Positions 8,992-50,744 of a stretch of 64,000 bases of DNA are shown here, one piece after another (positions within the stretch are counted from its first letter, which is position 1; each line of letters starts with the position of its first letter). The stretch covers positions 46,799-110,798 of the forward strand of contig CAJTLW010000006.1 of the NCBI GenBank assembly GCA_910577515.1. Direction: 5' to 3'. The position numbers and the translations under genes are program-made. This DNA comes from an uncultured Vampirovibrio sp. (GTDB lineage: Bacteria; Cyanobacteriota; Vampirovibrionia; Gastranaerophilales; Gastranaerophilaceae). The notes under the pieces were generated by a model. It did not search any database. It saw only the letters and a program-made list of their open reading frames with translations, and was not told where the DNA came from.

Positions 8992-10086
8992 TTATTTATC
9001 TTCATCCTTCACAACACCTTTAATATCAGGGGTTTTCTTTTTCAGCTTATATACAAAAATTAGAATTTCAGCAACTGCTTTATATAAATCCGGAGGAACT
9101 TCATGGTTTATTTCTACAAGCCTGAAAATTGCCCTTGCAACAGGCGGATTTTCAATTACAGGAATGTCATGCTCCTGCGCTATTTCTTTTATCCTCTTTG
9201 CAAATAACTCTGTACCTTTTGCAAGCAATTTCGGGGATTCCATAGTTTCGGCATCATATTTTAAGGCACAGGCTATATGTGTCGGGTTTGTAACGACAAA
9301 ATCAGATTCCGGCACCATATCCATCATAGATTTTTGCAATAATTGCTGCCTTTTTTGGCGAAGTGCTGCTTTTACATGCGGGTCGCCTTCAGAGTTTTTA
9401 TACTCATCCTTCACCTCTTTAAAACTCATTTTTTGATCCTGCATAAATTTCCACTTTGTAACCCCGTAATCTGCTGCAGCAATAATCAAAAAAGCAATCC
9501 CCGCCTTAATAATAAAATCTACAATTAATTTACCGAAGGCAATTAAGGTTGCAAACTGGTTATCCACAGCAGCCAGCATCAAAATGGAGGGAAAATGTTC
9601 CATATATACAAACCAGCCTATAAGACCCAAAATCAAAACCTTTGCAATGTTTTTAACAAGTTCAAACATAGTTTTTGGACTGATTAAGTTTTTAAAATAT
9701 TTTGTTGGGTTTAATTTATCAGGTTTTGGTATTAAAGGAGTAATTGTAAATAAAGGCCCTACCTGAATTAAATCTCCTAAAATTCCCATAAACCCGGCCA
9801 AAATTAATATCGGAAGAATAATTAAAAACGTAGGAATTAATGTGGAGGTTAAAATATACATATACCCTATTTTATCAAGATGGGCATTAGGAATTTGTTC
9901 ATAAAGCTTTGCATAAAGTATTGAAATTTGATTCCATATAAAAGGGCCAAGCGCATAAATAGCTGAAAACATCACAATAAGGGCAATTGCCATTGAAAAA
10001 TCCTTAGATTTTACAACCTGCCCTTCTTTTCTTGCTTTTTGAAGCTTCTGGTGCGATGCCTCAAACTGTTTATCTTCATCTCCCAT
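8992..10086 (-). CDS. flhB: Flagellar biosynthesis/type III export protein FlhB
   Basis: N terminus EASHQKLQKARKEGQVVKSKD, four TM segments, and the NPTH autocleavage motif (VVTNPTHIACALKY). Confidence 0.85.
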   Translation of the reverse strand: MGDEDKQFEASHQKLQKARKEGQVVKSKDFSMAIALIVMFSAIYALGPFIWNQISILYAKLYEQIPNAHLDKIGYMYILTSTLIPTFLIILPILILAGFMGILGDLIQVGPLFTITPLIPKPDKLNPTKYFKNLISPKTMFELVKNIAKVLILGLIGWFVYMEHFPSILMLAAVDNQFATLIAFGKLIVDFIIKAGIAFLIIAAADYGVTKWKFMQDQKMSFKEVKDEYKNSEGDPHVKAALRQKRQQLLQKSMMDMVPESDFVVTNPTHIACALKYDAETMESPKLLAKGTELFAKRIKEIAQEHDIPVIENPPVARAIFRLVEINHEVPPDLYKAVAEILIFVYKLKKKTPDIKGVVKDEDK

Positions 10087-26880: not shown

Positions 26881-27081
26881 ATGAACACAAACGAAAAATG
26901 TCTTTTAAATTATTTAGCTTGCCTGAACACAGCATCTGGTGCGGCAGAGCATCTTATGAAATTTCTAAATCTGCACAACAGGAAAATTGAATTTCATAAT
27001 TTAAACCCTATATTTGACATTATTGATGAAATGGAATTTTCAAACTATAATATAGCCTATGAACAAGAAAATTTGGGTTAA
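26881..27081 (+). CDS. Hypothetical small protein (doubtful)
   Basis: 66-aa ORF with no obvious SD. It overlaps the cyclase gene start by 23 nt. Confidence 0.3.
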   Translation: MNTNEKCLLNYLACLNTASGAAEHLMKFLNLHNRKIEFHNLNPIFDIIDEMEFSNYNIAYEQENLG

Positions 27082-28870
27082 AGTTTCTTATATTTTAGCA
27101 TCCCTGTTGGTTTTTGGGGTGTTTTTGTATTTAATTCAAATCCCTTCTGCAAAAGATTTTTTAACAAAAATTGAAAACACTACTTTTGATTTGAGGCAAA
27201 ATATCGTTTCAAAACATAAAAAAACATCCGATAAAATCGTGATTATCGATGTAAACGATGCAAGTTATGAATATATTGTGGATAAATATGGTAGCTGGCC
27301 TGCCCCAAGAGCTTTTTGGGCAGATTTAATCACAAACCTTGAGCCTGTTCATCCTGATATGATAATTTTTGATATGCTCTTTTTAAAAAAACATAAGGCA
27401 GACGGGGCTTCGGATTTTGAACTCATAAAAGCAGTAAACACCAATAAAAACGTTTACATTTCAATGAATTTGGATAATTACCCTCCTGAAGTCAGAATTC
27501 CGCCACAATTGCCGGATGCCTTAAAAAACACAATAGAAAATGATTTTTTGATAAAACAAAACCCTGATTTATCATATTCAAACTGCCGCCCTGTAATTGA
27601 TGAAATATTAAACGGCACAAAAAATATAGGTTTAATCAATGTTCAAAGAGATAAAGACGGCATTTTAAGAACTATGCCCCCGTTTTCATATTATAAAGGC
27701 GCTTATTATAAGCACCTTACAATCCTTGCAGGGCTTGATTATTTGAATATCGATAAAAATTCTTTCAAAATGAACCGCAACGGAAATATCGCGCTTGATA
27801 AAAAGCATACGCTCCCCTTAACAAAAGAAGGCAAAGTAATTTTAAATTGGTATGGCCCTGAATGGAGCTTTAATTATGTTCCTTTGTGGAGAACGGTGGA
27901 AGCCATCAAAAAGAACGACAGGAAATTTTTAGAAGATAATTTTAAAGATAAAATTGTATTCGTTGGCGTTACCGCAAACAGTCTTTCTGATATTAAAAGC
28001 ACCCCTGTTTCCTATATGTTCCCGGGCGTTGAAGTTCAGGCAACGTTTTTAAACAATCTTCTTGATAACAATTTTATTAAAAAAACGAGCGTATTTTTTG
28101 ATATATTAATTGCCCTTTTGCTTGCCGTATTAACGGGTTTTGGGGTTATGAATTTTAAAGCGCCGATGAAAGCTGTTTTATTGTTCTTCGGGCTTCAGGC
28201 GGCATATTTTGTAATCTCAATACTTCTTATGGGCTTTTTCAACATCTGGACAGGTTTAATTGCGCCTTTCGTATTGAGTATTTTAACCTTTATTGCAGCT
28301 TACGTTGTTAAATATTTATTAACATCGCGCGATTATGAACACACCTATAAGCTTGCTGTCACAGACGGTTTAACCGAAATGTTCAACCACAGATATTTTC
28401 AAGAACAAATGACCAATAATATAGGAAACGCAAAAAGGTATAATAGCGTATTCTCTTTAATTATGGTAGATATTGATTTCTTTAAAAAGTTTAATGATAC
28501 ATACGGACACCAATCAGGCGATGCTGTTTTAAGGCAGGTAGCCCAAACCATAAAAAGAAATATCCGCTCAACCGATATCCCCTGTAGATATGGCGGCGAA
28601 GAAATGTCTGTCATCTTAACAAACACAAACAAAGAAGATGCAGTTAAAACTGCAATTAAAATTTGCGAAGCGGTAAGAAACAAAGAATTTGAGCTTGCAA
28701 CCGGCGATTGGACACATGTTACAATAAGCCTTGGGGTTGCTGCAATGCCTGAAAACGGCGACACAACAGAAAAATTAATTGAATATGCCGATAAATGCTT
28801 ATACATAGCAAAAAGAAACGGCAGAAATCAAGTCGTATCCGAAGCCCCCGAAGACACTCCGACAGAGTAG
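27059..28870 (+). CDS. CHASE2-domain membrane diguanylate cyclase (GGDEF)
   Basis: N-terminal TM segment, a periplasmic CHASE2-like region, three TM segments, then a GGDEF domain with GGEEM at the active site and an RxxD I-site (RSTDIPCRYGGEEM). Confidence 0.85.
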   Translation: MNKKIWVKVSYILASLLVFGVFLYLIQIPSAKDFLTKIENTTFDLRQNIVSKHKKTSDKIVIIDVNDASYEYIVDKYGSWPAPRAFWADLITNLEPVHPDMIIFDMLFLKKHKADGASDFELIKAVNTNKNVYISMNLDNYPPEVRIPPQLPDALKNTIENDFLIKQNPDLSYSNCRPVIDEILNGTKNIGLINVQRDKDGILRTMPPFSYYKGAYYKHLTILAGLDYLNIDKNSFKMNRNGNIALDKKHTLPLTKEGKVILNWYGPEWSFNYVPLWRTVEAIKKNDRKFLEDNFKDKIVFVGVTANSLSDIKSTPVSYMFPGVEVQATFLNNLLDNNFIKKTSVFFDILIALLLAVLTGFGVMNFKAPMKAVLLFFGLQAAYFVISILLMGFFNIWTGLIAPFVLSILTFIAAYVVKYLLTSRDYEHTYKLAVTDGLTEMFNHRYFQEQMTNNIGNAKRYNSVFSLIMVDIDFFKKFNDTYGHQSGDAVLRQVAQTIKRNIRSTDIPCRYGGEEMSVILTNTNKEDAVKTAIKICEAVRNKEFELATGDWTHVTISLGVAAMPENGDTTEKLIEYADKCLYIAKRNGRNQVVSEAPEDTPTE

Positions 28871-33922: not shown

Positions 33923-34177
33923 CTAATTTTCTTTTTTCTTTACAATTTGTAACTCATATCCAAGAAAATCCAAAATTTCCTGAACTGTTTCAAACCTTAT
34001 TCTTTTTCTTGAAAAAAGCACGGAAAGACCGCTTGAAGCAGGCATTTTATGCCCTGCATTATTCATTTTTAAGATAAGCTTTCTCATTGAAAGACCGCAT
34101 CTTAAAAGAATTATTTGTATTTCCTGCTTGATATTTAACATCGTAACAATGCTACCTTTATTTATATCAATTGACAA
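33923..34177 (-). CDS. Small HTH protein (XRE-like), paralog of 28873..29118
   Basis: TTG start at 34177, or Met13. HTH-like LLRCGLSMRKLILKM...FETVQEILDFLGYEL. It is divergent from the glycine-rich gene. Confidence 0.6.
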   Translation of the reverse strand: MSIDINKGSIVTMLNIKQEIQIILLRCGLSMRKLILKMNNAGHKMPASSGLSVLFSRKRIRFETVQEILDFLGYELQIVKKKEN

Positions 34178-34189
34178 TTTAATAAAATT

Positions 34190-34230
34190 TTGCTATTCAT
34201 GTTTTATTATTGCTAATTAATAAGTAGCAA
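34190..34230. promoter_or_regulatory. Candidate operator: TTGCTA half-sites
   Basis: TTGCTA at 34190 and 34210 (20-nt period), with an inverted TAGCAA at 34225-34230. The sites overlap a possible promoter (TTGACA 34171-34176, TGcTATTCA 34191-34199). Confidence 0.4.
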
Positions 34231-34241
34231 ATATTAAGGAG

Positions 34242-36887
34242 ATGAATATGCAATTAAAAAATTATAATTTTAAAGCCGCCGCCTGTATATTGCCCAACAG
34301 GATAACCTCCTGTCATTGCAAACACATCCGGAAAAACGATGGTGCAGTAATTCGCCACATTCTGTCATTGCGAGGGACCGAAGGGAGCGAAGCAATCCGG
34401 AAGAAAAATAAATGCAACTGGATTGCCACAGTCACTTCGTTCCTTCGCAATGACATTCATATTCCTGCCTTTTCACTCGTTGAAATGCTTATGGCACTGC
34501 TTGTGGCATCATTGCTGCTTGCAGCCCTTGCCCCTGTCATGACTAAAAGATTATCGGGTGAAAACATTATGGTAGGAGCAGTATCAAAAAATAACGGAAA
34601 CGAAACCCATGGGGTTGAAATTATTGAATATGACACAATAAATGATTCTGATAAAAATTTTACTAAAAAAAGTTTTACAGTACCTCAGGGAGTTCATACT
34701 TTAAGTTTAATTATTCAAGCAGGCGGTGGAGGCGGAGCGGGAGCAACATCAGGATATACAAAATACAATCAGGTATTTGATACATCAACAAAAGCTTCTG
34801 ATTCAATTGTAATAGAAGGTGATTTAGTGGGTATTAAAAATGTAAGGGTGGATTTAACAGGTGGCGGCGGGGGCGGAGGAGGTGCCGTTGCTACTGTTAT
34901 AGATTGTAAAGAACCAAACAAACATAAGTATATTAATCCGACACAGGGAAATGGAAACCAACAGTGTGTTAATAAATTCAATGTAGGGGATGCAAACGGC
35001 CCTGCTATTGCAAGCGGAGCAAGAAAATGTACACAAGGTGTGGATACTCCAGAATGCAGGGAGTGTGGCGACAGCACAAAAGCAATTTATGGAAAATGCT
35101 ATTTTGTCGGAAATTACACAGATTGCAGCGAAGACCCTGCAGGCGGCTGGACAGGATGCAACAGAACAGGGCTTCAAAAGCCTATAGGTAAAACTTCCTG
35201 TGCAAATTATACAGGAGCCGGGCTTGCAAAGGGTAAATGGAGAATGCCCAAGGTTGCAGATGTTTCAAAATATAAAACATATATAAAACAGCTCAACTTT
35301 GGGCAAGGAGCAAACGGGCTTCAAGTATGTCAATTTGAAACAGAAGCAGCCTCGACAAATAAAATAGCATTGTGTACAGGTAATTCTCAAAAATGTTATG
35401 GGGTACCCCAAAACGATTGCGATATCCATGGCGTTCATTTGGATGAAGCAACAGGTGGCGTGTTTTATGGAACTGGCAGCGTTAATTCAGGTTGTAGCGC
35501 AGATTACTTAGGTTGCATAGAAAATGTTCAATCTGCCCGTTGCCTCACCACAGATAATGGTGCCTTCACCTTTGCTTACAAAACAGGCGGAGGCGGAGGA
35601 GCAGGCGCAAGAGTATATAACTACACTCTCCCTGAAACATACAATGGGAAAAAATTATTTGAAAAAGGAAACAGGATAAATATACAAAGGGGCGAAGCTG
35701 GTGCAGGAGGTGAAGCTGGTGTAAACGGAAGTGCAGGAACCCCAAGCTGCTTACAGGTACAGGATAGCGAAGGAAACGGTATATTCTTTTTCTGTGCAAT
35801 GGGAGGAAACTTTGGTAAAGCAGCAACAACATCAGCCTGTGGCACAGCAGGCGGTACCAATGCAACTTGTGCAATAGGAACAAATTCTACAGATTATACT
35901 GCCGTAAATTGTTCAAACTATGGAACAGTGGTTTCAAAAGGTGGAAGCAATGGAGTTTCAAAAACCGTTTCATACAATGAAACAGTAAACGGGGGAAATG
36001 GTGCAGCTTCAACATATAATACAAGCCTTGCAGGGGGAAGCGGAGGAAGCGGAATAGCAACATCTACTGCAACACAAAATTCAATAAACGGTAAATCTCC
36101 TTCAGTATCAGGAACAAACTATCCTTATGGTGCAGGAGGCGGAGGAGGAAGTGCAGGAAGAGGTGCAAATTCATCAGCTGTTTTAACAGGTAAAGGCGGA
36201 GGTGGATATATAGGATATGCAAAATTAACTTATGATGTTGAAAGAACAGGTGCTTCAGGGGGCGGTGGAGGTGGTGGTTCTATGGCAGCCATTGCATCGC
36301 TTGAAGTAGATGCAGGCAAAAGTTATGAAGTAATTGCAGGAAAAGGTGGTAAAGGTGGAAATGTAAATGCTGATGGGGAAGACGGGTATAAAAGCAGCTT
36401 TAAATATTCAAGTTCAAAGGTTATAGAAGCAAACCCGGGGCTTGGAGGAAAAACAGGTACCCATACAGATGTATATTCAATAGGAGGGCTTGCAGGAAAC
36501 GGAGGAAATAAGGTAAACCCCGGAGTTGGTTTTGGAATAACAATAAAAGAAGGGTTAAAAGGAACTAACGGATACAACTACGATAGTACAAAAACTAAAA
36601 AGAGTATGGGAGGTAATGGTGGTAAATCGGGAATTGGAACTGATGGCGGCTGTGGAGGGTTAAGTTCATATTATGAAACAAGCTCTTTTGTATCAAATAC
36701 TGACAAAAATGAATGTAAAATTACCAATATTAATGCAGAATCCGGTCTTTATCTTTTAAATACATTGTATATGGGGACAGACTATGGAAGAGCAGGCTCA
36801 GGCGGAGGAGGCGGAGGCTTTGAAAGTTTCTCCCTCTATGGCGTAGGCGGAAATGGAGGAAATGGATATGTATTCATTAAATGGTAA
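34242..36887 (+). CDS. Giant glycine-rich / cysteine-rich protein with prepilin-type N-terminal motif
   Basis: SD AAGGAG at 34236-34241, with ATGs at 34242 and 34248. The class III signal-like motif A|FSLVEMLMALLVASLLLAALAP has Glu at +5 (residues 76-98). Twelve or more Gly-run motifs are present, from FTVPQGVHTLSLIIQAGGGGGAG to GGGGGGFESFSLYGVGGNGGNGYVFIKW. A segment of about 220 aa holds more than 20 Cys. Confidence 0.7.
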   Translation: MNMQLKNYNFKAAACILPNRITSCHCKHIRKNDGAVIRHILSLRGTEGSEAIRKKNKCNWIATVTSFLRNDIHIPAFSLVEMLMALLVASLLLAALAPVMTKRLSGENIMVGAVSKNNGNETHGVEIIEYDTINDSDKNFTKKSFTVPQGVHTLSLIIQAGGGGGAGATSGYTKYNQVFDTSTKASDSIVIEGDLVGIKNVRVDLTGGGGGGGGAVATVIDCKEPNKHKYINPTQGNGNQQCVNKFNVGDANGPAIASGARKCTQGVDTPECRECGDSTKAIYGKCYFVGNYTDCSEDPAGGWTGCNRTGLQKPIGKTSCANYTGAGLAKGKWRMPKVADVSKYKTYIKQLNFGQGANGLQVCQFETEAASTNKIALCTGNSQKCYGVPQNDCDIHGVHLDEATGGVFYGTGSVNSGCSADYLGCIENVQSARCLTTDNGAFTFAYKTGGGGGAGARVYNYTLPETYNGKKLFEKGNRINIQRGEAGAGGEAGVNGSAGTPSCLQVQDSEGNGIFFFCAMGGNFGKAATTSACGTAGGTNATCAIGTNSTDYTAVNCSNYGTVVSKGGSNGVSKTVSYNETVNGGNGAASTYNTSLAGGSGGSGIATSTATQNSINGKSPSVSGTNYPYGAGGGGGSAGRGANSSAVLTGKGGGGYIGYAKLTYDVERTGASGGGGGGGSMAAIASLEVDAGKSYEVIAGKGGKGGNVNADGEDGYKSSFKYSSSKVIEANPGLGGKTGTHTDVYSIGGLAGNGGNKVNPGVGFGITIKEGLKGTNGYNYDSTKTKKSMGGNGGKSGIGTDGGCGGLSSYYETSSFVSNTDKNECKITNINAESGLYLLNTLYMGTDYGRAGSGGGGGGFESFSLYGVGGNGGNGYVFIKW
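34363..34455. repeat. Palindromic repeat TGTCATTGCGAG...GCAATCC...GGATTGC...TCGCAATGACA, copy A (inside the CDS leader)
   Basis: An imperfect hairpin of about 93 nt, with a partial extra half-copy at 34311-34331. It translates in frame as ...SLRGTEGSEAIRKKNKCNWIATVTSFLRND... Confidence 0.8.
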
Positions 36888-36929
36888 ATACTTAAACTTT
36901 TAATCAAATTTTTAGATGAACAACTTTTC

Positions 36930-36968
36930 AAGGAGTGCTTATTGTAACCTTAGCACTCCTTTTTTTTA
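36930..36968 (+). terminator. Intrinsic terminator of the glycine-rich gene
   Basis: 10-bp stem AAGGAGTGCT / AGCACTCCTT followed by a T9 run. Confidence 0.8.
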
Positions 36969-36989
36969 TTGAAATTTAGAATAAAATTC

Positions 36990-37086
36990 TGTCATTGCGA
37001 GTGTATGCAAAGCAATCCAGTAAAAATCATAATTAGTTGATTATGGCTGGATTGCCGCGGTCGTCTAAAACCCCCTCGCAATGACA
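36990..37086. repeat. Palindromic repeat, copy B
   Basis: TGTCATTGCGAG...AGCAATCCAG...CTGGATTGCC...CTCGCAATGACA, in the same orientation as copy A. Confidence 0.8.
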
Positions 37087-37222
37087 ATACAATGATTTTG
37101 GGAGTTGAAATAGTAATTTTTAGCTTAATTGAAAATACAAAATTTTTCTTTCCTTTAATCCATCTTTATTATAAAATTAAGGAAAATAAAGAAGTGTAGA
37201 AATTTAAAGAAAGAAAAGAAAA

Positions 37223-39364
37223 ATGGAAAACATGCCAGAATCTAAAAAAATGCAAATTACAATCGGCGGGAAGATTGTAGAAATTGAAACAGGAAAATAC
37301 GCACAAAGTGCTACTTCATCTGTTACCGTAAGATGTGAAGACACAATGCTTTTTATTCACTCAACAGTTAGTAAAGAGCCTCGTGTTGGAATAGATTTTT
37401 TCCCATTATTAATTGATTATGAAGAAAGAATGTCCGCAATAGGAAGAATCCCCGGCGGTTTCACAAGAACTGAAGGAAAATCTTCTGAAAAAGCAATATT
37501 GGTTTCAAGATTAATTGACCGTCCTATCCGTCCTTTATGGCCTAAAGGATATAGAAACGATGTTCAGGTTGTTGTTCAGCTATTCAGCTATGACCAGAAA
37601 AACCAGCCTGATACACTTGCAATTTTAGGTGCATCAACCGCTTTAATGCTTTCAGGCGCTCCTTTTGAAGGGCCTGTAGGTGCTGTTAGAGTCGGCAGAA
37701 TTGACGGCAATTTCGTTGCAAACCCAACCCATCAGGAAGCTCTTGAATCAGATATGGATATCGTTGTAGCAGGTACAATGGAATCTGTTATTATGGTTGA
37801 AGCAGGCTGCAAATTCGTAACAGAAGACGATATAATGGCAGCTGTTGAATTTGCACAAGTTGAAATTAAAAAACAATGCGAAGCACAGATTGAATTTGCA
37901 AACCGCTGCGGCATTGTAAGAGAAGAATTTGTTAACCCTTACGATACATCTGAACTTGCAGCGATTATTAAAGACAATTGCTACGATATGATTGTTGATG
38001 CTTATCATAACTTTGACCGTGATTACAGAAAAAACAAGCTTGATGAAGCAAAGCAAATCGTAAAAGACAAAGTAACAGCGCTTGATGATACCCATCCTAT
38101 TAAAGCTATGATGGAAGAAACAGGTATTGATTTTGTAGCAGAAGAATTTAAAGCTCTTGAAAAGAAAATCATGAGAGCAATGATTGTAAATGAAGGTGTC
38201 AGAGCTGACGGCAGAAAAACTTTTGAAGTACGTCCCATCTGGTGTGAAGTAGGGGTTATCCCAAGAGCGCACGGTAGTGCTGTATTTACAAGAGGCCAAA
38301 CCCAAATTTTATCCTGTGCAACTCTTGCAGGCCCTGCTATGGCTCAGGAATTAGACGGCGTTGACCCGCTAACCAAAAAAAGCTATATGCACAAATACAT
38401 ATTCCCTGGCTTTTCAGTTGGTGAAGTAAAACCATTAAGAGGTCCGGGCAGACGTGAAATCGGCCACGGCAACCTTGCCGAACGCGCCAATGTTCCGGCT
38501 TTACCTGATGAAAAAGATTTCCCTTACACAATAAGAGTAACTTCGGATGTACTTGAATCAAACGGTTCAACTTCAATGGGTTCAACTTGTGCAAGCTCTA
38601 TGGCTTTGATGAATGCAGGCGTTCCTGTTAAATGTATGATAGGCGGCGTTGCAATGGGTCTTATTAAAGAAGGTGACACAGACGTTGTTTTAACTGATAT
38701 TCAAGGTATTGAAGACTTCCTTGGTGATATGGACTTTAAAGTAACAGGTAACGATACAGGAATTACTGCTCTTCAAATGGATATGAAAATTAAAGGCATT
38801 TCAAATGAAACTTTAAGAAGAGCTTTATATCAGGCAAAAGACGGCAGAATTTACATTATGGGCAAAATGAGAGAAGCAATCTCTGAACCTAATAAAGATT
38901 TGTCAGAATTTGCACCAAGATTATATTCTATGACTATTCCAACTGAAGACATCGGAACAGTAATCGGGCCTGGCGGCAAAATGATTAGAAGCATCATTGA
39001 TGCCTCAGGTGCTGAAATTGACATTAAAGATGACGGTACAGTTACAATCACATCAAATGATAAAGAAGGCGCAGATATTGCAATCAAAATGATTAAAGAT
39101 TTAACCTTCAAGGCAGAGCCGGGGCAAGTTTATAAAGGTAAAGTCGTTAGAATTATCCCGATTGGTGCATTTGTTGAATTAGCTCCAGGAAAAGACGGTA
39201 TGGTGCATATTTCACAAGTATGCAACGAAAGAATTGACACCGTTGAATCCCGCTTAAATATAGGCGACAATGTTATCGTTAAAGTTGTAAAAATTGACGA
39301 CAAAGGAAGAGTAAACCTTACAATTAAAGGAGTAAGCGATGAAGAAAAATGCCGCTTTAACTAA
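37223..39364 (+). CDS. pnp: Polyribonucleotide nucleotidyltransferase (PNPase)
   Basis: 713 aa with two RNase PH domains, a KH domain (IGTVIGPGGKMIRSI) and an S1 domain (GQVYKGKVVRIIPIGAFVEL). Confidence 0.95.
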   Translation: MENMPESKKMQITIGGKIVEIETGKYAQSATSSVTVRCEDTMLFIHSTVSKEPRVGIDFFPLLIDYEERMSAIGRIPGGFTRTEGKSSEKAILVSRLIDRPIRPLWPKGYRNDVQVVVQLFSYDQKNQPDTLAILGASTALMLSGAPFEGPVGAVRVGRIDGNFVANPTHQEALESDMDIVVAGTMESVIMVEAGCKFVTEDDIMAAVEFAQVEIKKQCEAQIEFANRCGIVREEFVNPYDTSELAAIIKDNCYDMIVDAYHNFDRDYRKNKLDEAKQIVKDKVTALDDTHPIKAMMEETGIDFVAEEFKALEKKIMRAMIVNEGVRADGRKTFEVRPIWCEVGVIPRAHGSAVFTRGQTQILSCATLAGPAMAQELDGVDPLTKKSYMHKYIFPGFSVGEVKPLRGPGRREIGHGNLAERANVPALPDEKDFPYTIRVTSDVLESNGSTSMGSTCASSMALMNAGVPVKCMIGGVAMGLIKEGDTDVVLTDIQGIEDFLGDMDFKVTGNDTGITALQMDMKIKGISNETLRRALYQAKDGRIYIMGKMREAISEPNKDLSEFAPRLYSMTIPTEDIGTVIGPGGKMIRSIIDASGAEIDIKDDGTVTITSNDKEGADIAIKMIKDLTFKAEPGQVYKGKVVRIIPIGAFVELAPGKDGMVHISQVCNERIDTVESRLNIGDNVIVKVVKIDDKGRVNLTIKGVSDEEKCRFN

Positions 39365-40067
39365 AAATTCAATCAAAAACCTGTTTTTAACAATGGTTTT
39401 AGGAGGCGCCATGGTTCTTTTATCAGGCTGCACCTCTTTAAGCTACGTTGGGGATGATTTTGATGCTAAAAAAAGCGCATCGCTCCAAACAAGTGAACTC
39501 TTCACTTTTTCAACATATACAAAAACATCAGATGAAGAAAACATTAATATGAAGTTAGGGGTTGCAAAAACCCCTCTTCCTGATGCACTTGTAGTTTATA
39601 TAAATATTAAAAATAATTCTACAGCATCTGATTATGTTTTCTATCTGAAAGATTTTGTAATTAAAGCAGGGAACGAAACCCTAAAACCTATTCCGCCTTC
39701 AAGCTATTTGAATGCTTATCAAAGCTATGAAACAGGAACATATAACGGCTTATCAAACATTGCACCTACTTTAGGCGCTTTTGCAGATATTCAAAATGCT
39801 TATCAAAATGTTAACAATATGGTAAATGCAGCTTCTAATCAAAACACTGTAAACAATGCTGCAACAAGCCAAATAGGCTCTATTGCAAAAGGCATATCAT
39901 CTCACACAATATCTTCTGCAGGTGTCATCAAAACAGGAAGCTCTGATTTCTTTTATATCTTCTTAAAAGACCCGGGGTATTTGCCTATTGATATTACCTA
40001 CAAAGATTTAAATTATTCCTTTGGCAATGCTAAGGAAGCTGCAAAAGAAGCCAAGGAAAACAAATAA
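39339..40067 (+). CDS. Lipoprotein, function unknown
   Basis: Lipobox LLSGC after a signal peptide. It overlaps the pnp 3' end by 26 nt. Confidence 0.6.
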   Translation: MKKNAALTKNSIKNLFLTMVLGGAMVLLSGCTSLSYVGDDFDAKKSASLQTSELFTFSTYTKTSDEENINMKLGVAKTPLPDALVVYINIKNNSTASDYVFYLKDFVIKAGNETLKPIPPSSYLNAYQSYETGTYNGLSNIAPTLGAFADIQNAYQNVNNMVNAASNQNTVNNAATSQIGSIAKGISSHTISSAGVIKTGSSDFFYIFLKDPGYLPIDITYKDLNYSFGNAKEAAKEAKENK

Positions 40068-46871: not shown

Positions 46872-49800
46872 ATGCTCATCAAAGGAAACATAAATTCAAA
46901 TAAAACCGAAATTTTGTTAAAAAAATGCGCACAGCTTTTAAATGAAGGAATTAGCGCGGATAAAATTCTTGTAATTGTGCAAAATTCAAAGAAAAAAAAT
47001 GAATTTATAAAAAAAATAAAAAAGAACCTTGAAGTTGATGCAGTGACAAACCTTAATGTATATACGTTTTTCGGGCTTATCTACAATAAAATTCTGGAAA
47101 ATTGGGTATTAATAGAAAATCAAATTAAAGATGATAATGCAAAAATTTCTCCAAACCTTTCTGGGCTTGAAGTGAGCCAGTATATTTTTAAAAAGGCGAT
47201 AGATGAAATTCAATTTCTTGGGTACAATTCGAAAGTAAACCTGCTCCACCAGCTTTTAAGGCGATATTCTCTCTGTGTTTTAAACGCACTTTCAGCAGAT
47301 GAAATCAAAGAAAAATCAAAAATTTTACTTGACCCGTTTTATTCAGATATCAAAAATGCACTGAATTTGTACAGGAAAAAAACTCTCTCCCTTCGGGCTT
47401 TTGACTATCTTCGCCAGACTGATATATTTAAATTTGTTTATGAAAATTCCACAAATCCCTTTGAATACGTTTTTTTAGATGATGCAGATGAAATCACCCC
47501 CGCCCTTTTTCAATATTTAAGCCACATTAAAAAGGATATTAAAGAATTTTTTATAGCATACGATGAATACGGAAGCTCAAGAAAGGGTTTTTTAGGTGCT
47601 ATTGAATACAATTTTGAACATTTTTTAAATGAAAAACCTCTTATTTTGCCTCAAATGCAAAAAGATAAAAAAGCGGATGAAATTTTCCATAACATAAAAA
47701 ATAATGCCCCTGTTTTAATTGAAAATTCAATAATAAAAAGCTTTATCAGGGAAGATGAGATGATAGATGAAGTTATTCAAAATATAAATTCGCTTCTCTC
47801 AAACCCCAAAAACAGGCTTAATCCAAAGGATATAGCAATTGTTACCCCAAATATTGATAATTATCTTAAAATCCAATTAGAAAAAATAAACGCAAAAGTA
47901 AGGTTTATTTCAGGCAGCGAAAAATTATCCCAAAATCCTTTCATAGGTTCAATTTTGGAAATTTTAAAGCTTCTAAACAACAAAAACCTTAAAATTTCTC
48001 CATATATCTTGCGCGGAATTCTTGCAAATATTTTAAAACTCGATTTCAACCTCACTTTAAAAATTGCGGATGATTATGAAATAAATTCCGAGAATTCGGG
48101 CGAGAATATTTTTCAATGTTTTGAAAAATACAGGGAAAATAAAGATATAGAAGAATTTTTGGAATTAAACGACGATATTAAAGAAAAACCTTTATCAGAG
48201 CAGCTTTATACCCTTTCAAATAAATATGTTAAATTAAAACCAGAAAATAAAGATGTAATAAGAAAAATTAACCAGCTTTTAAAACAGATAAGAGATTTTG
48301 AAGAAATTTTTAACGCAAACACACAAACCAATACAGAGGTGCAAACCGTTTCAAATAAAGATTTAATCATACAGCTTGAAAATACCATAATTTCAGAAAA
48401 CCCTCTTGATAGTGAAATTAAAGAAGAAGATGCCGTTATAGTGTCTACAGCACAAAAATTAATCGATAATTCAATAAAATCAAAACACACGTTTTTAATT
48501 GATACCACAAGTTCAAATTGGGTAAAACAGGATATAGGCCCCCTGTATAATGCATGGGTTTTTCAAAAAAGCTGGAATAAAAAGAGTTTCGAGCTTGAAG
48601 ACAATATAAATTGCACCCTTGATAAAACGGCAAGAATTTTAAGAAAAATTTTCCTTTTAAATGATTCATCCCCTGATACGCCCGCCTGTACATCTTCTGA
48701 AAATGACAGCAAAATCTATATTTATTCAAGCATCTACGATTTTTTAGGCACGGAAAATTTTAAAGGCATCAACCATTTCTTTATTGAGCCAAACCCCGTT
48801 TTAAAAACCAAATCCGAAAAAGAATTTAAGATTGTTCCCCGTCCGGATCAGGCTCCTGTTTTAGAATATAAAGAGGGTAAAATGGCTGTAAATGCCGTTG
48901 CAGGAGCAGGCAAAACTACAATAATGCTTGCGCTTATTATGAAACTTTTAGATGAAAATATTGCCCCGCAGAATATTTTCGTTCTCACTTTTATGGATTC
49001 TGCCGCAAGAAATTTTAAGGAAAGAATAAAATCCAATTTTAAAAACCTTACGGAACTTCCGCATATATCAACAATCCACGGCCTTGCACTAAGAATTTTA
49101 AGAGAAAATAATAACCACGTTAAAATCAATCTTGATGTGGATTTTGAAATAGTAGATGAAATAAAAAGAAGTGCAATCATAAAGGAAATTACCTATAATT
49201 TAGGCCTAGATACTATGAAGGCAGAGCTTTATGAACGCTCAATAAGCGCCTATAAAAACCAGAAAATAAAAGATGAAGATAGGCTCTCACCCCTTTTTAA
49301 AAGGATTTATCTGAATTATAAAACCACCCTTTTATCAAACAATTTAATAGATTACGATGACCTTTTATCCCTTTCTTTAAGCCTTCTTCAGATGGATAAA
49401 GGTGTTAGAGAATATTATCAAAATTTGATGCAATATATTATCGAAGATGAAGCGCAGGATTCAAGCGAAATTCAGCAGGAATTAATAAAAATTTTATCAG
49501 ACAACCATAAAAACCTGATAAGATGCGGAGATGTCAATCAGGCAATAACCACAACCTTTTCAAATGCCGATGTTAAAGGGTTTAAAAAATTCATTGAAGA
49601 AAATCAAAATGTTACAATGAATTATTCAAACAGAAATTCAACTGGCGTTATAAATTTAGCAAATAACCTTATTAAATTCGGTGAAAGTGTCTCAAAAAGC
49701 GCATTTTATCCCGTTGAAACAAAACCTGTTGAAGGAAAAAATATTATAGATAATAAAAGTGCTAAAACATTCATTTTCAAAACCGAGGCGGAAGAAAAGA

Positions 49801-50744
49801 AATTTATTTTGGATAACATAAATAAAATCCAAAAAGAAGACCCAAATGCAACCATTGCAATACTTTTAAGGAGCAACCGCGCTGTAAGCCTTTGGGGAGA
49901 ACATATAACGGAATTCTCAAACATTAAATTTACAACAAATTCTGATACACTAAACCTAAACCCTGTATTTCGCACCGTTTTAGCCATCTTAAACTTTATA
50001 AACAACCCCTTAAACAACAAAAATGTAAAAAATTGCGCTAAAACCCTCTATGAACTTGGCTTTTATAAAAATGACTTTGAAATTTTTGAATTTTTAGAGA
50101 AACAAAATTCTCCTTTCATCTTAGGAAACAATGAATATTTCGGTTTATTTTGGGATTTAAAATATTTTCTTTCATTCTGGAATGTTCCGATTTATGAAAT
50201 TGCTTATAAAACAGGTGAATTTTATTTTTCAAATGACCTACTTCAAAAAGCAAATGTGCCGCTTGTTTCAGGTATAGTTTCAAAAATATTCAGCCAGTAT
50301 AAAACCTTTGAAGATACCGTTGAAAGATTAAACATTCTTTCTGATAAAATAAACAGAACAGGAATTAAGCTTATTCAGGATGAAAATAAAAAATCAGACG
50401 GCTCTGTAAAAATTTTAACCCTGCATAAATCCAAAGGAGATGAATTCGACCACGTCTTTATCCCCGAATTGTATAAAGATAATCTGTCTTTAAACCTTGA
50501 AGATATTAAACTTAAAGAAAATTCAAAACTGATTGAAAGCGTAAAAACAAATCCTAAAGGTGAGAGTGAATTAAAAAAAGAAATTTTGGATGAAAACTTC
50601 CGCCTGATGTATGTTGGCATCACAAGGGCTAAAAACAAGCTGTATTTAAGTTCTGCGCTTGAATATAAAATATTCAATAAAGTTAAAGAAAAAACCCCGA
50701 ATGAACTTTTTGAATTGAAAGATATTAAGGGAGGCAGAATATGA
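46872..50744 (+). CDS. Tandem SF1 (UvrD/AddA-like) helicase: degenerate N-terminal module plus intact C-terminal module
   Basis: Residues 1 to about 640 carry degenerate motifs (GNINSNKTE, ILVIVQNSKKKNEF, VFLDDADEI). Residues from about 670 carry AVAGAGKTT, IIEDEAQDS, TLHKSKGDEFD and YVGITRAK. There is no nuclease domain. Confidence 0.7.
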   Translation: MLIKGNINSNKTEILLKKCAQLLNEGISADKILVIVQNSKKKNEFIKKIKKNLEVDAVTNLNVYTFFGLIYNKILENWVLIENQIKDDNAKISPNLSGLEVSQYIFKKAIDEIQFLGYNSKVNLLHQLLRRYSLCVLNALSADEIKEKSKILLDPFYSDIKNALNLYRKKTLSLRAFDYLRQTDIFKFVYENSTNPFEYVFLDDADEITPALFQYLSHIKKDIKEFFIAYDEYGSSRKGFLGAIEYNFEHFLNEKPLILPQMQKDKKADEIFHNIKNNAPVLIENSIIKSFIREDEMIDEVIQNINSLLSNPKNRLNPKDIAIVTPNIDNYLKIQLEKINAKVRFISGSEKLSQNPFIGSILEILKLLNNKNLKISPYILRGILANILKLDFNLTLKIADDYEINSENSGENIFQCFEKYRENKDIEEFLELNDDIKEKPLSEQLYTLSNKYVKLKPENKDVIRKINQLLKQIRDFEEIFNANTQTNTEVQTVSNKDLIIQLENTIISENPLDSEIKEEDAVIVSTAQKLIDNSIKSKHTFLIDTTSSNWVKQDIGPLYNAWVFQKSWNKKSFELEDNINCTLDKTARILRKIFLLNDSSPDTPACTSSENDSKIYIYSSIYDFLGTENFKGINHFFIEPNPVLKTKSEKEFKIVPRPDQAPVLEYKEGKMAVNAVAGAGKTTIMLALIMKLLDENIAPQNIFVLTFMDSAARNFKERIKSNFKNLTELPHISTIHGLALRILRENNNHVKINLDVDFEIVDEIKRSAIIKEITYNLGLDTMKAELYERSISAYKNQKIKDEDRLSPLFKRIYLNYKTTLLSNNLIDYDDLLSLSLSLLQMDKGVREYYQNLMQYIIEDEAQDSSEIQQELIKILSDNHKNLIRCGDVNQAITTTFSNADVKGFKKFIEENQNVTMNYSNRNSTGVINLANNLIKFGESVSKSAFYPVETKPVEGKNIIDNKSAKTFIFKTEAEEKKFILDNINKIQKEDPNATIAILLRSNRAVSLWGEHITEFSNIKFTTNSDTLNLNPVFRTVLAILNFINNPLNNKNVKNCAKTLYELGFYKNDFEIFEFLEKQNSPFILGNNEYFGLFWDLKYFLSFWNVPIYEIAYKTGEFYFSNDLLQKANVPLVSGIVSKIFSQYKTFEDTVERLNILSDKINRTGIKLIQDENKKSDGSVKILTLHKSKGDEFDHVFIPELYKDNLSLNLEDIKLKENSKLIESVKTNPKGESELKKEILDENFRLMYVGITRAKNKLYLSSALEYKIFNKVKEKTPNELFELKDIKGGRI

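Follow-up and report, generated by a model that had tools for sequence, protein, structure and literature searches.

The question raised by this locus is why a gene for a large glycine-rich protein should carry a type IV prepilin motif more than 70 codons downstream of its start. The gene lies in a 64,000-nucleotide stretch of DNA from an uncultured Vampirovibrio sp. (assembly GCA_910577515.1, contig CAJTLW010000006.1, positions 46,799 to 110,798), which is the whole sequence that was analysed and is called the window here. The open reading frame (ORF) of 881 amino acids (34242/34248-36887, plus strand) that a preliminary description of this DNA had reported is present and is the sole long ORF of its region. 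According to our analysis, the gene, which comes from a gut bacterium of the Gastranaerophilales (Melainabacteria), probably encodes a modular, type-IV-pilin-like adhesin. Our main new result is that the displaced prepilin motif is explained by a palindromic element in the leader, which is translated in frame and probably discarded.

The Shine-Dalgarno (SD) sequence AAGGAG (34236-34241) and the start codons ATG 34242 and ATG 34248, which together occupy 34236-34250 on the plus strand, are present as previously described. The second ATG has the better SD spacing (6 nt) and is the start chosen by gene callers in P0001, a 99% identical protein. The leader-coding region that begins there (34248-34469, plus strand) specifies 74 residues, the last of which is Ala76, and includes 13 lysine and arginine residues against four aspartate and glutamate residues. 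The statement that no ATG, GTG or TTG codon stands between this start and the prepilin motif is true of the last 33 codons, but in-frame TTG codons are found further upstream at 34290 and 34368, neither of which is preceded by an SD sequence. A non-canonical start at ATT 34455 or 34461 was considered and rejected because there is no SD sequence at either codon, and also because other paralogs have no start-like codon downstream of the element.

The N terminus of the protein is a class III (prepilin-type) signal, which consists of a leader ending in Ala and a helix of about 25 residues with F1, E5 and P22. The prepilin signature that had been noted is present in the context ...IHIPA76^F77-S-L-V-E81-M, where ^ marks the predicted cleavage site; it continues with LMALLVASLLLAALAPVMTKR into a hydrophobic helix in the region of residues 76-103, and the predicted mature N terminus begins FSLVEMLMALLV. 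Class III signal peptides are described as having a leader of variable length, Gly or Ala as its last residue, 20-25 hydrophobic residues next and often Glu at position 5 (PMC10191384). All four of these features are found here, in a hydrophilic leader that ends with Ala76 before Phe77 and in a hydrophobic helix of 20-25 residues with Glu at +5 (FSLVEMLMALLVASLLLAALAPVMTKR). The pilin-type segment, or alpha1N (F1-SLVE5-MLMALLVASLLLAALAP22-VMTKR27), is encoded at 34470-34550 on the plus strand and was defined by its conserved residues and by a helix in an AlphaFold2 (AF2) model. This model, which was built from an alignment of 37 sequences, has a mean pLDDT (predicted local distance difference test) of 83.6 and consists of a helix at about mature residues 3-25, a linker with pLDDT below 40 and then beta-rich domains. 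The linker of low predicted order covers residues ~104-124 (34551-34613, plus strand; pLDDT 34-38).

The same N terminus is a property of the whole family, which bears out its earlier reading as pilin-type. A total of 415 homologous proteins were found for query residues 70-881. The pattern [AGS]^[F/W..][ST]L.E lies within the first 160 residues of 241 of 264 family proteins, and the residue at -1 in these is Ala in 182 (76%), Gly in 57 (24%) and Ser in two. Their called leaders have a median length of 18 residues (range 4-139), and many are classic, for example MKKPA^FTLAELL and MKKYA^FTLAELL. Within the 37-sequence alignment E5 and P22 are invariant, F1 is nearly so and L3 is invariant or near-invariant. 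The family profile also matches mature Thermus PilA (6xxd), in an alignment that starts from F1 and residue 1 (E 0.003), and several relatives pass the cut-off of the Pfam N_methyl model (P0060 with 26.0 bits, P0143 with 26.6 and P0134 with 23.4). Members of the clade with the FSLVEM motif have a mean identity of 89% in the 27 residues after the cleavage site versus 36% in their passengers. This difference points to a shared partner of alpha1N, either the machinery or the core of a filament, although gene conversion is an alternative explanation for such near-identical segments.

Some family members have been called without this signal. The called starts of P0007, P0139, P0149, P0161 and P0178 are Met residues inside alpha1N (MALLVASLL...), so that F1 and E5 are lost. 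The DNA of P0007 encodes the motif M-A^FSLVEL in a frame that is open far upstream, and the starts of this group are therefore mis-called.

The long leader of the window protein arose when a palindromic element, of which about 150 nt are present, inserted in frame behind the original leader sequence. Repeat comparison and folding place the element at 34305-34458 (plus strand), as a partial 5' copy (~34305-34357) followed by a full hairpin (34358-34458). The stems of this hairpin span 34363-34455 with the termini TGTCATTGCGAG and TTCGCAATGACA, and it folds at -47.1 kcal/mol (z -7.6). A second copy in the same orientation lies about 100 nt past the stop codon (36985-37089, plus strand; 77.9 bits), with a fold of -41.5 kcal/mol (z -7.1). 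The termini of the element are TGTCATTGCGAG and (C/T)TCGCAATGACA, and as 12-mers they occur four times, versus 0.14 expected by chance. Half-copies were also found at the equivalent 3' position of paralogs in the loci L006 and L009. The preliminary description had palindromic repeats flanking the gene; there are indeed two copies in one orientation, but the upstream copy lies inside the ORF, in its leader-coding part.

Comparison with relatives shows where the element entered. The leader of about 75 residues, whose conservation had been raised as a question, is not a conserved feature, as relatives have leaders of 4-30 residues such as MKKPA^F and the length is due to the insertion. In the closest relatives that lack the element, the leader directly follows an SD sequence and is 27 residues long at 77% identity and 17 residues long at 64% identity. 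The part of the window leader that precedes the element (MNMQLKN...ILPNRI) resembles the element-free leaders of P0091 (MNMQFKNN...ALPNRL) and P0105 (...LLPNRIFA^FSLVEM). Since MNMQ.KN and LPNR(I/L) are common to these element-free leaders, we place the entry of the element between LPNRI and the cleavage site.

Other family genes also carry the element in their leaders. An ORF in the locus L005 reads MKKAFSL-[element]-SFKPA^FSLVEM, that is, a typical short prepilin start, the element and then a second AFSL-coding site. A short version of the element in L132 is read as MVIASVSEAIQ...PRND-STKKA^F, and in L131 more than 80 codons are open through element fragments and contain LPNR, RHCE and KAAFS. 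Altogether, element-derived peptides are found in eight of the 241 N termini. A duplicated AFS(L)-coding site flanks the element in L005 (20190-20370, minus strand) and in L131 (180-250, KAAFSH...element fragment...MAFSLVEL), which suggests either a target-site duplication or preferred insertion at the codons of prepilin cleavage sites.

The gene remains functional with its insertion. Four haplotypes, represented by five further contigs (L001, L133, L134, L135 and L136) of five samples, all keep the insertion in frame, free of stop codons and without an indel. The mature part is under purifying selection in these haplotypes, with a ratio of non-synonymous to synonymous substitution rates (dN/dS) of 0.08-0.13. 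This ratio and the open frame in all four haplotypes indicate that the gene is functional and that translation runs through the element. The leader, by contrast with the mature part, has a dN of ~1-5 times that of the latter (median ~3 times), and seven of its eight substitutions are non-synonymous. Thus, the amino acid sequence of the leader is essentially unconstrained, which is the expectation for a leader that is cut off.

The element itself is not confined to this family. No match for the hairpin element or its region was found in Rfam. It is very widespread, occurring on at least 120 metagenome contigs from many unrelated samples, JGI and other, with GC contents of 31-69%, and its termini are the same in genomes of such different composition. 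When 116 copies on metagenome contigs of unrelated origin were checked, no pilin-like motif was found close to any of them; a general link between element and prepilin genes was therefore rejected, and the association is confined to this lineage or is a local hotspot. In the Gastranaerophilales DNA examined, each copy or half-copy either belongs to the leader of a family gene or follows such a gene closely on its 3' side, in a sample that was biased to family loci except for the window, whose two copies flank the mature coding region.

The passenger that follows the linker consists of two homologous Gly_rich_2 repeats and an N-terminal Gly-rich segment that holds an inserted 16-Cys Lcl_C/DUF1566 module, all of which are modules otherwise used for receptor binding. 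The mature protein is 20% Gly with seven runs of at least four Gly residues, and the peptides quoted in the preliminary description are all present. The N-terminal segment (34614-34892, plus strand) is beta-rich and Gly-rich by its AF2 model and composition and includes FTVPQGVHTLSLIIQAGGGGGAG and VRVDLTGGGGGGGG; its similarity to the later Gly-rich repeats is weak (hhalign E 3e-4 to 9e-4, probability 24-41%). The middle repeat (residues ~441-654; 35562-36203, plus strand) was identified by hhalign as a homologue of the C-terminal domain (probability 91.8%, E 7e-7) and has a weak match of its own to Gly_rich_2 (E 0.3). The C-terminal domain, with the stop codon, is encoded at 36204-36887 (plus strand) and matches the Pfam family Gly_rich_2 (PF21722) over residues 649-881. 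The score is 30.2 bits with the whole protein and 37.6 bits with residues 647-881, where the cut-off is 24.3.

Structural comparison places these domains with those of phage fibres and tail tips. A Foldseek search with the whole model matched the tail tip of mycobacteriophage Bxb1 (9d93_Qa, E 6.4e-3) and the cyanophage Pam3 fibre (7ypx_A, probability 1.0, E 9.5e-3), and 73 viral models in BFVD at E<=1e-3, most of them annotated as 'glycine-rich domain-containing', minor tail or tail fibre proteins. The low TM-scores reflect the use of the complete multi-domain model in this search. The resemblance to Gly_rich and ALK-type domains suggested earlier thus holds for Gly_rich_2, which is above its cut-off, and for the phage fibre and tail-tip folds. 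For ALK the similarity is weak: the window protein has no match to the Pfam Gly_rich and ALK models, and the ALK TG structures 7nx4 and 7mzy were matched by Foldseek only at E 2-3 (TM 0.07-0.18). The glycine-rich domain of Obg matches the family profile with E 0.017. Obg, ALK and gp38 of phage S16 are known proteins with polyglycine II (PGII) or polyproline II (PPII) bundles (PMC12227593). Assignment of secondary structure by DSSP on the AF2 model left long, confident segments without helix or strand, and a PGII lattice in the Gly runs is plausible.

The Cys-rich module (residues ~218-440; 34893-35561, plus strand) is inserted into the first Gly-rich segment and contains the motif GKWRMPKVADV. 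An insert of about 220 residues had been described correctly, but its Cys residues number 16 and not, as stated there, over 20; the mature protein as a whole has 23 and the complete ORF 27. The suggested likeness to DUF1566 is confirmed through relatives, in which the insert is a discrete module homologous to Lcl_C/DUF1566. The window protein has no match to Lcl_C (PF07603, cut-off 34.9 bits) at E<=1, and the aligned region of full-length homologs scores 25-28 bits. However, positions ~150-393 of the family profile match two to six tandem modules in relatives which score 60-101 bits on Lcl_C, and the WRLP/WRMP motif is conserved in the Cys-rich modules. Five relatives (P0130, P0134, P0143, P0182 and P0197) have the same pilin-like N terminus (e.g. 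MRIKGFSLIELLISLVIISLLVAAFAPIITKK) followed by two to six tandem Lcl_C modules and no Gly_rich_2 domain. Lcl's C-terminal domain (Lcl-CTD) is a C-type-lectin-like domain that binds glycosaminoglycans (PMC11162425).

Upstream of the main gene and divergent from it is a small regulator gene (33923-34177, minus strand), which encodes 84 residues from TTG 34177 or, more likely, 72 residues from ATG 34141, since most homologs start at the position of Met13. The small protein has no sequence match in Pfam, NCBIfam or the PDB, and none of its 128 homologs of 70-85 residues has a Pfam match. Its AF2 model (pLDDT 90.7) has four helices in an XRE-like fold, and the Foldseek matches listed from the PDB were mostly helix-turn-helix proteins like lambda repressor, namely HipB, XRE, SinR, the 434 repressor and C.Esp1396I (TM 0.55-0.65 for the top matches and 0.6-0.65 for the best of them, though with E of only 0.2-1.5). 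A candidate operator, the imperfect palindrome TTGCTAATT-AAT-AAGTAGCAA, occupies 34210-34230 in the shared divergent intergenic region; it reads TTGCTAATTAATAAGTAGCAA in the window, ends 5 nt upstream of the SD sequence and is accompanied by an extra TTGCTA half-site at 34190. The model of a helical fold like that of lambda repressor and a palindromic target near the gene's own promoter are thus found together, and DNA binding is predicted. The small gene had been proposed with such an operator, and the palindrome is conserved with the regulator gene: it recurs as TTGCTAATTATAAAATAGCAA in another genome (L137 and L138, 3933-3953), where it lies about 50 nt upstream of a homolog with 63% identity. 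The neighbours of that homolog are ftsY and spoIID, and there is no Gly-rich gene close by, which indicates that the operator travels with the regulator and that the regulator is not exclusive to the family. The loci L137 and L138 (3708-4219), from other Gastranaerophilales, have their small XRE-like homologs between ftsY and spoIID-murJ, behind the same upstream palindrome and next to an unannotated 64-aa divergent ORF.

A small divergent gene of the helix-turn-helix (HTH) type adjoins family genes in eight of 10 distinct loci. The neighbour is an XRE HTH_3 protein of 98-112 residues in L002-L005, L007 and L009 and the type with 82-84 residues in the window, L001 and L010, and no such gene was found in L008. 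The small gene of the window is unlike the 107-aa XRE genes beside its closest homologs, and the regulatory partner is therefore not one conserved family. Hence a regulator-like gene of the proposed kind is a recurrent neighbour, but it is not strictly dedicated, because its homologs also occur without a Gly-rich gene. Downstream, the strong terminator that had been described is present as an intrinsic-terminator-like hairpin (36930-36968, plus strand) with a 10-bp stem formed by AAGGAGTGCT and AGCACTCCTT, a 12-nt loop and a following T run. The hairpin (36930-36961) folds at -14.9 kcal/mol (z -4.3), and it was missed by a consensus scanner because its loop exceeds 8 nt.

These features suggest how the protein could work. 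The precursor would enter the inner membrane with its leader on the cytoplasmic side, where a prepilin peptidase would remove the whole 74-residue leader, including the part encoded by the element. Removal of the whole leader would explain why insertions are tolerated and recurrent in the family. The alpha1N helix would then either hold the protein in the membrane or make it part of a type IV filament, where a place near the tip is the most plausible, and the passenger would bind glycans or other ligands on gut surfaces. The divergent XRE-like protein would bind the palindrome at 34210-34230 and control both promoters.

Several points weigh against an adhesin displayed on a pilus. Cleavage, methylation, localisation, ligand binding and regulation are predictions from the sequence. 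The window protein scores 14.1 bits on Pfam N_methyl (PF07963), under the cut-off of 21.2, and 11.1 on TIGR02532, under the cut-off of 16.3; its matches to N_methyl, ComGC and HpsB are all sub-threshold. The AF2 model has no globular pilin head, i.e. no alpha1C packed on a beta-sheet, and incorporation into a pilus is unproven for that reason. With a helix that stops at about residue 25 and gives way to the disordered linker, the protein is an incomplete pilin module, and the basic residues TKR directly after the helix would be on the presumed outer side of the membrane. No genes for pilus machinery were found among the 20 largest ORFs of the window or near the 10 loci examined. A hairpin of -47 kcal/mol within the translated leader could also lower expression, and the PGII lattice is itself only inferred. 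In favour of the pilin-like reading, a Gastranaerophilus genome is reported to have pilA, pilB, pilC, pilT and pilD (PMC5877343).

The missing pilin head and the lack of pilus genes near the loci would suit a protein whose pilin-like segment is a signal-anchor only, with a periplasmic passenger that is tethered in the inner membrane or released and never enters a filament. Class III signal peptides are also found on non-pilin substrates, such as archaeal sugar-binding proteins, and the presence of the same N terminus before quite different passengers (the tandem Lcl_C modules) suggests a generic device for targeting or anchoring. However, alpha1N is so nearly identical among the paralogs, E5 and P22 included, that the similarity exceeds the needs of an anchor and fits packing in a common filament core or recognition by common machinery, and lectin-like modules and those of the phage receptor-binding type make most sense outside the cell. 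We therefore consider the signal-anchor to be doubtful, though it deserves serious weight. It is very improbable that the gene has been inactivated by an element that destroyed its original start and leader, leaving a long ORF by accident. The strong hairpin inside the ORF, the lack of an ATG, GTG or TTG codon between the element and the motif and the family members called from an internal Met would all be expected of such a gene, but the selection on the mature part, the four insertion-bearing haplotypes without an indel or stop in 2.6 kb and the strong SD sequence and ATG ahead of the open frame are not, and the frame is also open through the element in the independent paralogs of L005, L132 and L131 (>80 codons). 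Least credible is a gene for a phage tail fibre or receptor-binding protein, or a prophage remnant, rather than a cellular surface protein. The best structural matches are indeed phage fibre, tail-tip and minor tail proteins, yet a prepilin-type N terminus is not a feature of tail fibres, the neighbours are housekeeping genes (hcp, pdxA, pnp, polA, priA and secY) with no phage genes nearby, and the paralogs lie singly among core genes in many genomes. It is this selection and gene context that make the last two explanations unlikely, and the modular, pilin-like adhesin remains the reading that we prefer.

The window as a whole is a housekeeping region with pdxA, hcp, pnp, polA, priA, a gene for a UvrD-like helicase, secY, hisS, purA, der, flhB and a gene for a GGDEF protein. 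Among 1.84 billion representatives, a profile search found 1873 representative clusters (50% identity) at E<=1e-3 and 309 at E<=1e-30, and family members are almost all ~780-880 residues long. No functional name for the family was found in public sources, where one fragment is labelled 'competence protein ComGC' and the others are hypothetical. The only match in a genome collection is titled Candidatus Gastranaerophilales, and Candidatus Galligastranaerophilus has a homolog of the adjacent small gene. The taxonomic breadth rests on these few names, as the genome-collection scan with the family alignment picked up poly-Gly patterns and gave a single locus. A search with the 45-aa N-terminal segment gave only eight short fragments and was uninformative on other passengers.

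The ENA sample ERZ13404987 includes a contig without any difference from the window in the 2.9 kb that were compared, and a second contig of that sample has three further paralogs within 22 kb; should the two contigs belong to a single genome, the family would have at least four copies in it. The three paralogs in 22 kb of L005 (2-1168, 9736-12276 and 17286-20357) each have their own divergent XRE-type HTH gene and are interleaved with the flagellar export genes fliO, fliP, fliQ and fliR and an fliM/N-like gene. Several other genes of the window should be mentioned. A 242-aa ORF (39339-40067) without a Pfam match has a lipoprotein-type N terminus (…LSGC) and overlaps the end of pnp by 26 nt. 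A protein of 1290 residues (46872-50744) has UvrD-type helicase domains only from residue 660, and no Pfam family matches its first 650 residues at E<=1e-5. The window also encodes flhB (8995-10086) and a CHASE2-GGDEF diguanylate cyclase (27059-28870), which are consistent with a motile lifestyle that switches between surface-attached and free states.

The Gastranaerophilales, which live in the guts of humans and animals and are related to cyanobacteria, do not photosynthesise and are uncultured; this family is a concrete candidate for their means of attachment. Its design, with no predicted head and with receptor-binding modules common to phage fibres, broadens the concept of the modular pilin, and the window gene illustrates how a mobile hairpin can be taken up in frame by a leader that is probably cleaved, while the gene stays functional. 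The results should also be useful for gene callers, which mis-start or over-extend such genes. A broader proposal can be made with rather little confidence: the Gastranaerophilales might have a system of multi-paralog adhesins displayed on filaments, in which a headless alpha1N presents Gly-rich (possibly PGII) domains of the phage receptor-binding type and disulfide-rich lectin modules, a small XRE switch at each copy makes the display of their binding specificities in the gut variable or mutually exclusive, and the leader, since the prepilin peptidase removes it, is a safe landing pad for a cross-phylum element that is translated and then discarded. Current understanding is not overturned by this study, and its value lies in a testable example and a correction to annotation.

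The statement that such a protein is not a described pilus component was too strong, as modular pilins with grafted lectin or adhesin modules are established (PMC8179133), and the family, with more than 1800 clusters in public data, is already covered by Pfam domains. It does differ from the known modular pilins in having no head, in its Gly-rich domains of the phage-fibre type with a disulfide-rich, lectin-like insert and in its large family of paralogs in Melainabacteria. Two known examples are PilB and PilC of Streptococcus sanguinis, in which a vWA and a lectin module, respectively, are grafted behind a class III signal with Glu5, a plan that is also seen here (PMC8179133). Like PilC, the window protein carries a lectin-type module. 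Ahead of the grafted domain, both streptococcal proteins contain an entire small pilin module (alpha1 and beta-sheet), whereas only alpha1N and a linker are predicted here. The passenger of Gly_rich_2 and Lcl_C and the diderm Melainabacterium host are further differences, and the window protein, unlike PilB and PilC, is known from its sequence alone. The domain IPR011871 is presumably the Fibrobacter paralogous domain related to DUF1566. The architecture of IPR012902 with IPR011871 was among the most frequent in an InterPro survey of modular pilins (PMC8179133).

The Gly-rich receptor-binding domains of phages (Pam3 fibre 7ypx and Bxb1 9d93) have in common with the window protein the Gly_rich_2 match and the fold found by Foldseek. 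Unlike the phage fibres, the window gene is cellular and chromosomal, its product is fused to a pilin-type N terminus, and the Gly-rich domain is present two or three times and interrupted by the lectin-like insert. The PGII-domain protein gp38 of Salmonella phage S16 was not among the Foldseek matches. The TG (TNF-like and glycine-rich) domain of ALK/LTK also has Gly runs in a beta-rich domain, but homology is not established (E 2-3). Lcl-CTD of Legionella pneumophila (PF07603) is homologous to the insert by way of family relatives, and both have the WR(L/M)P motif. Lcl-CTD has no disulfides and is a trimer on a collagen stalk and a substrate of type II secretion. In contrast, the window module has 16 Cys in ~220 residues and is inserted within another domain. 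Finally, the element in the leader may be compared with the palindromic elements of Rickettsia (RPE), whose in-frame insertions are found inside genes that code for proteins. Both are palindromic repeats of ~100-150 nt that are in frame and stop-free in the ORF and recur in several genes. The element described here belongs to a different sequence family, has an extremely broad distribution and, unlike RPE, sits in a leader that is probably cleaved off.

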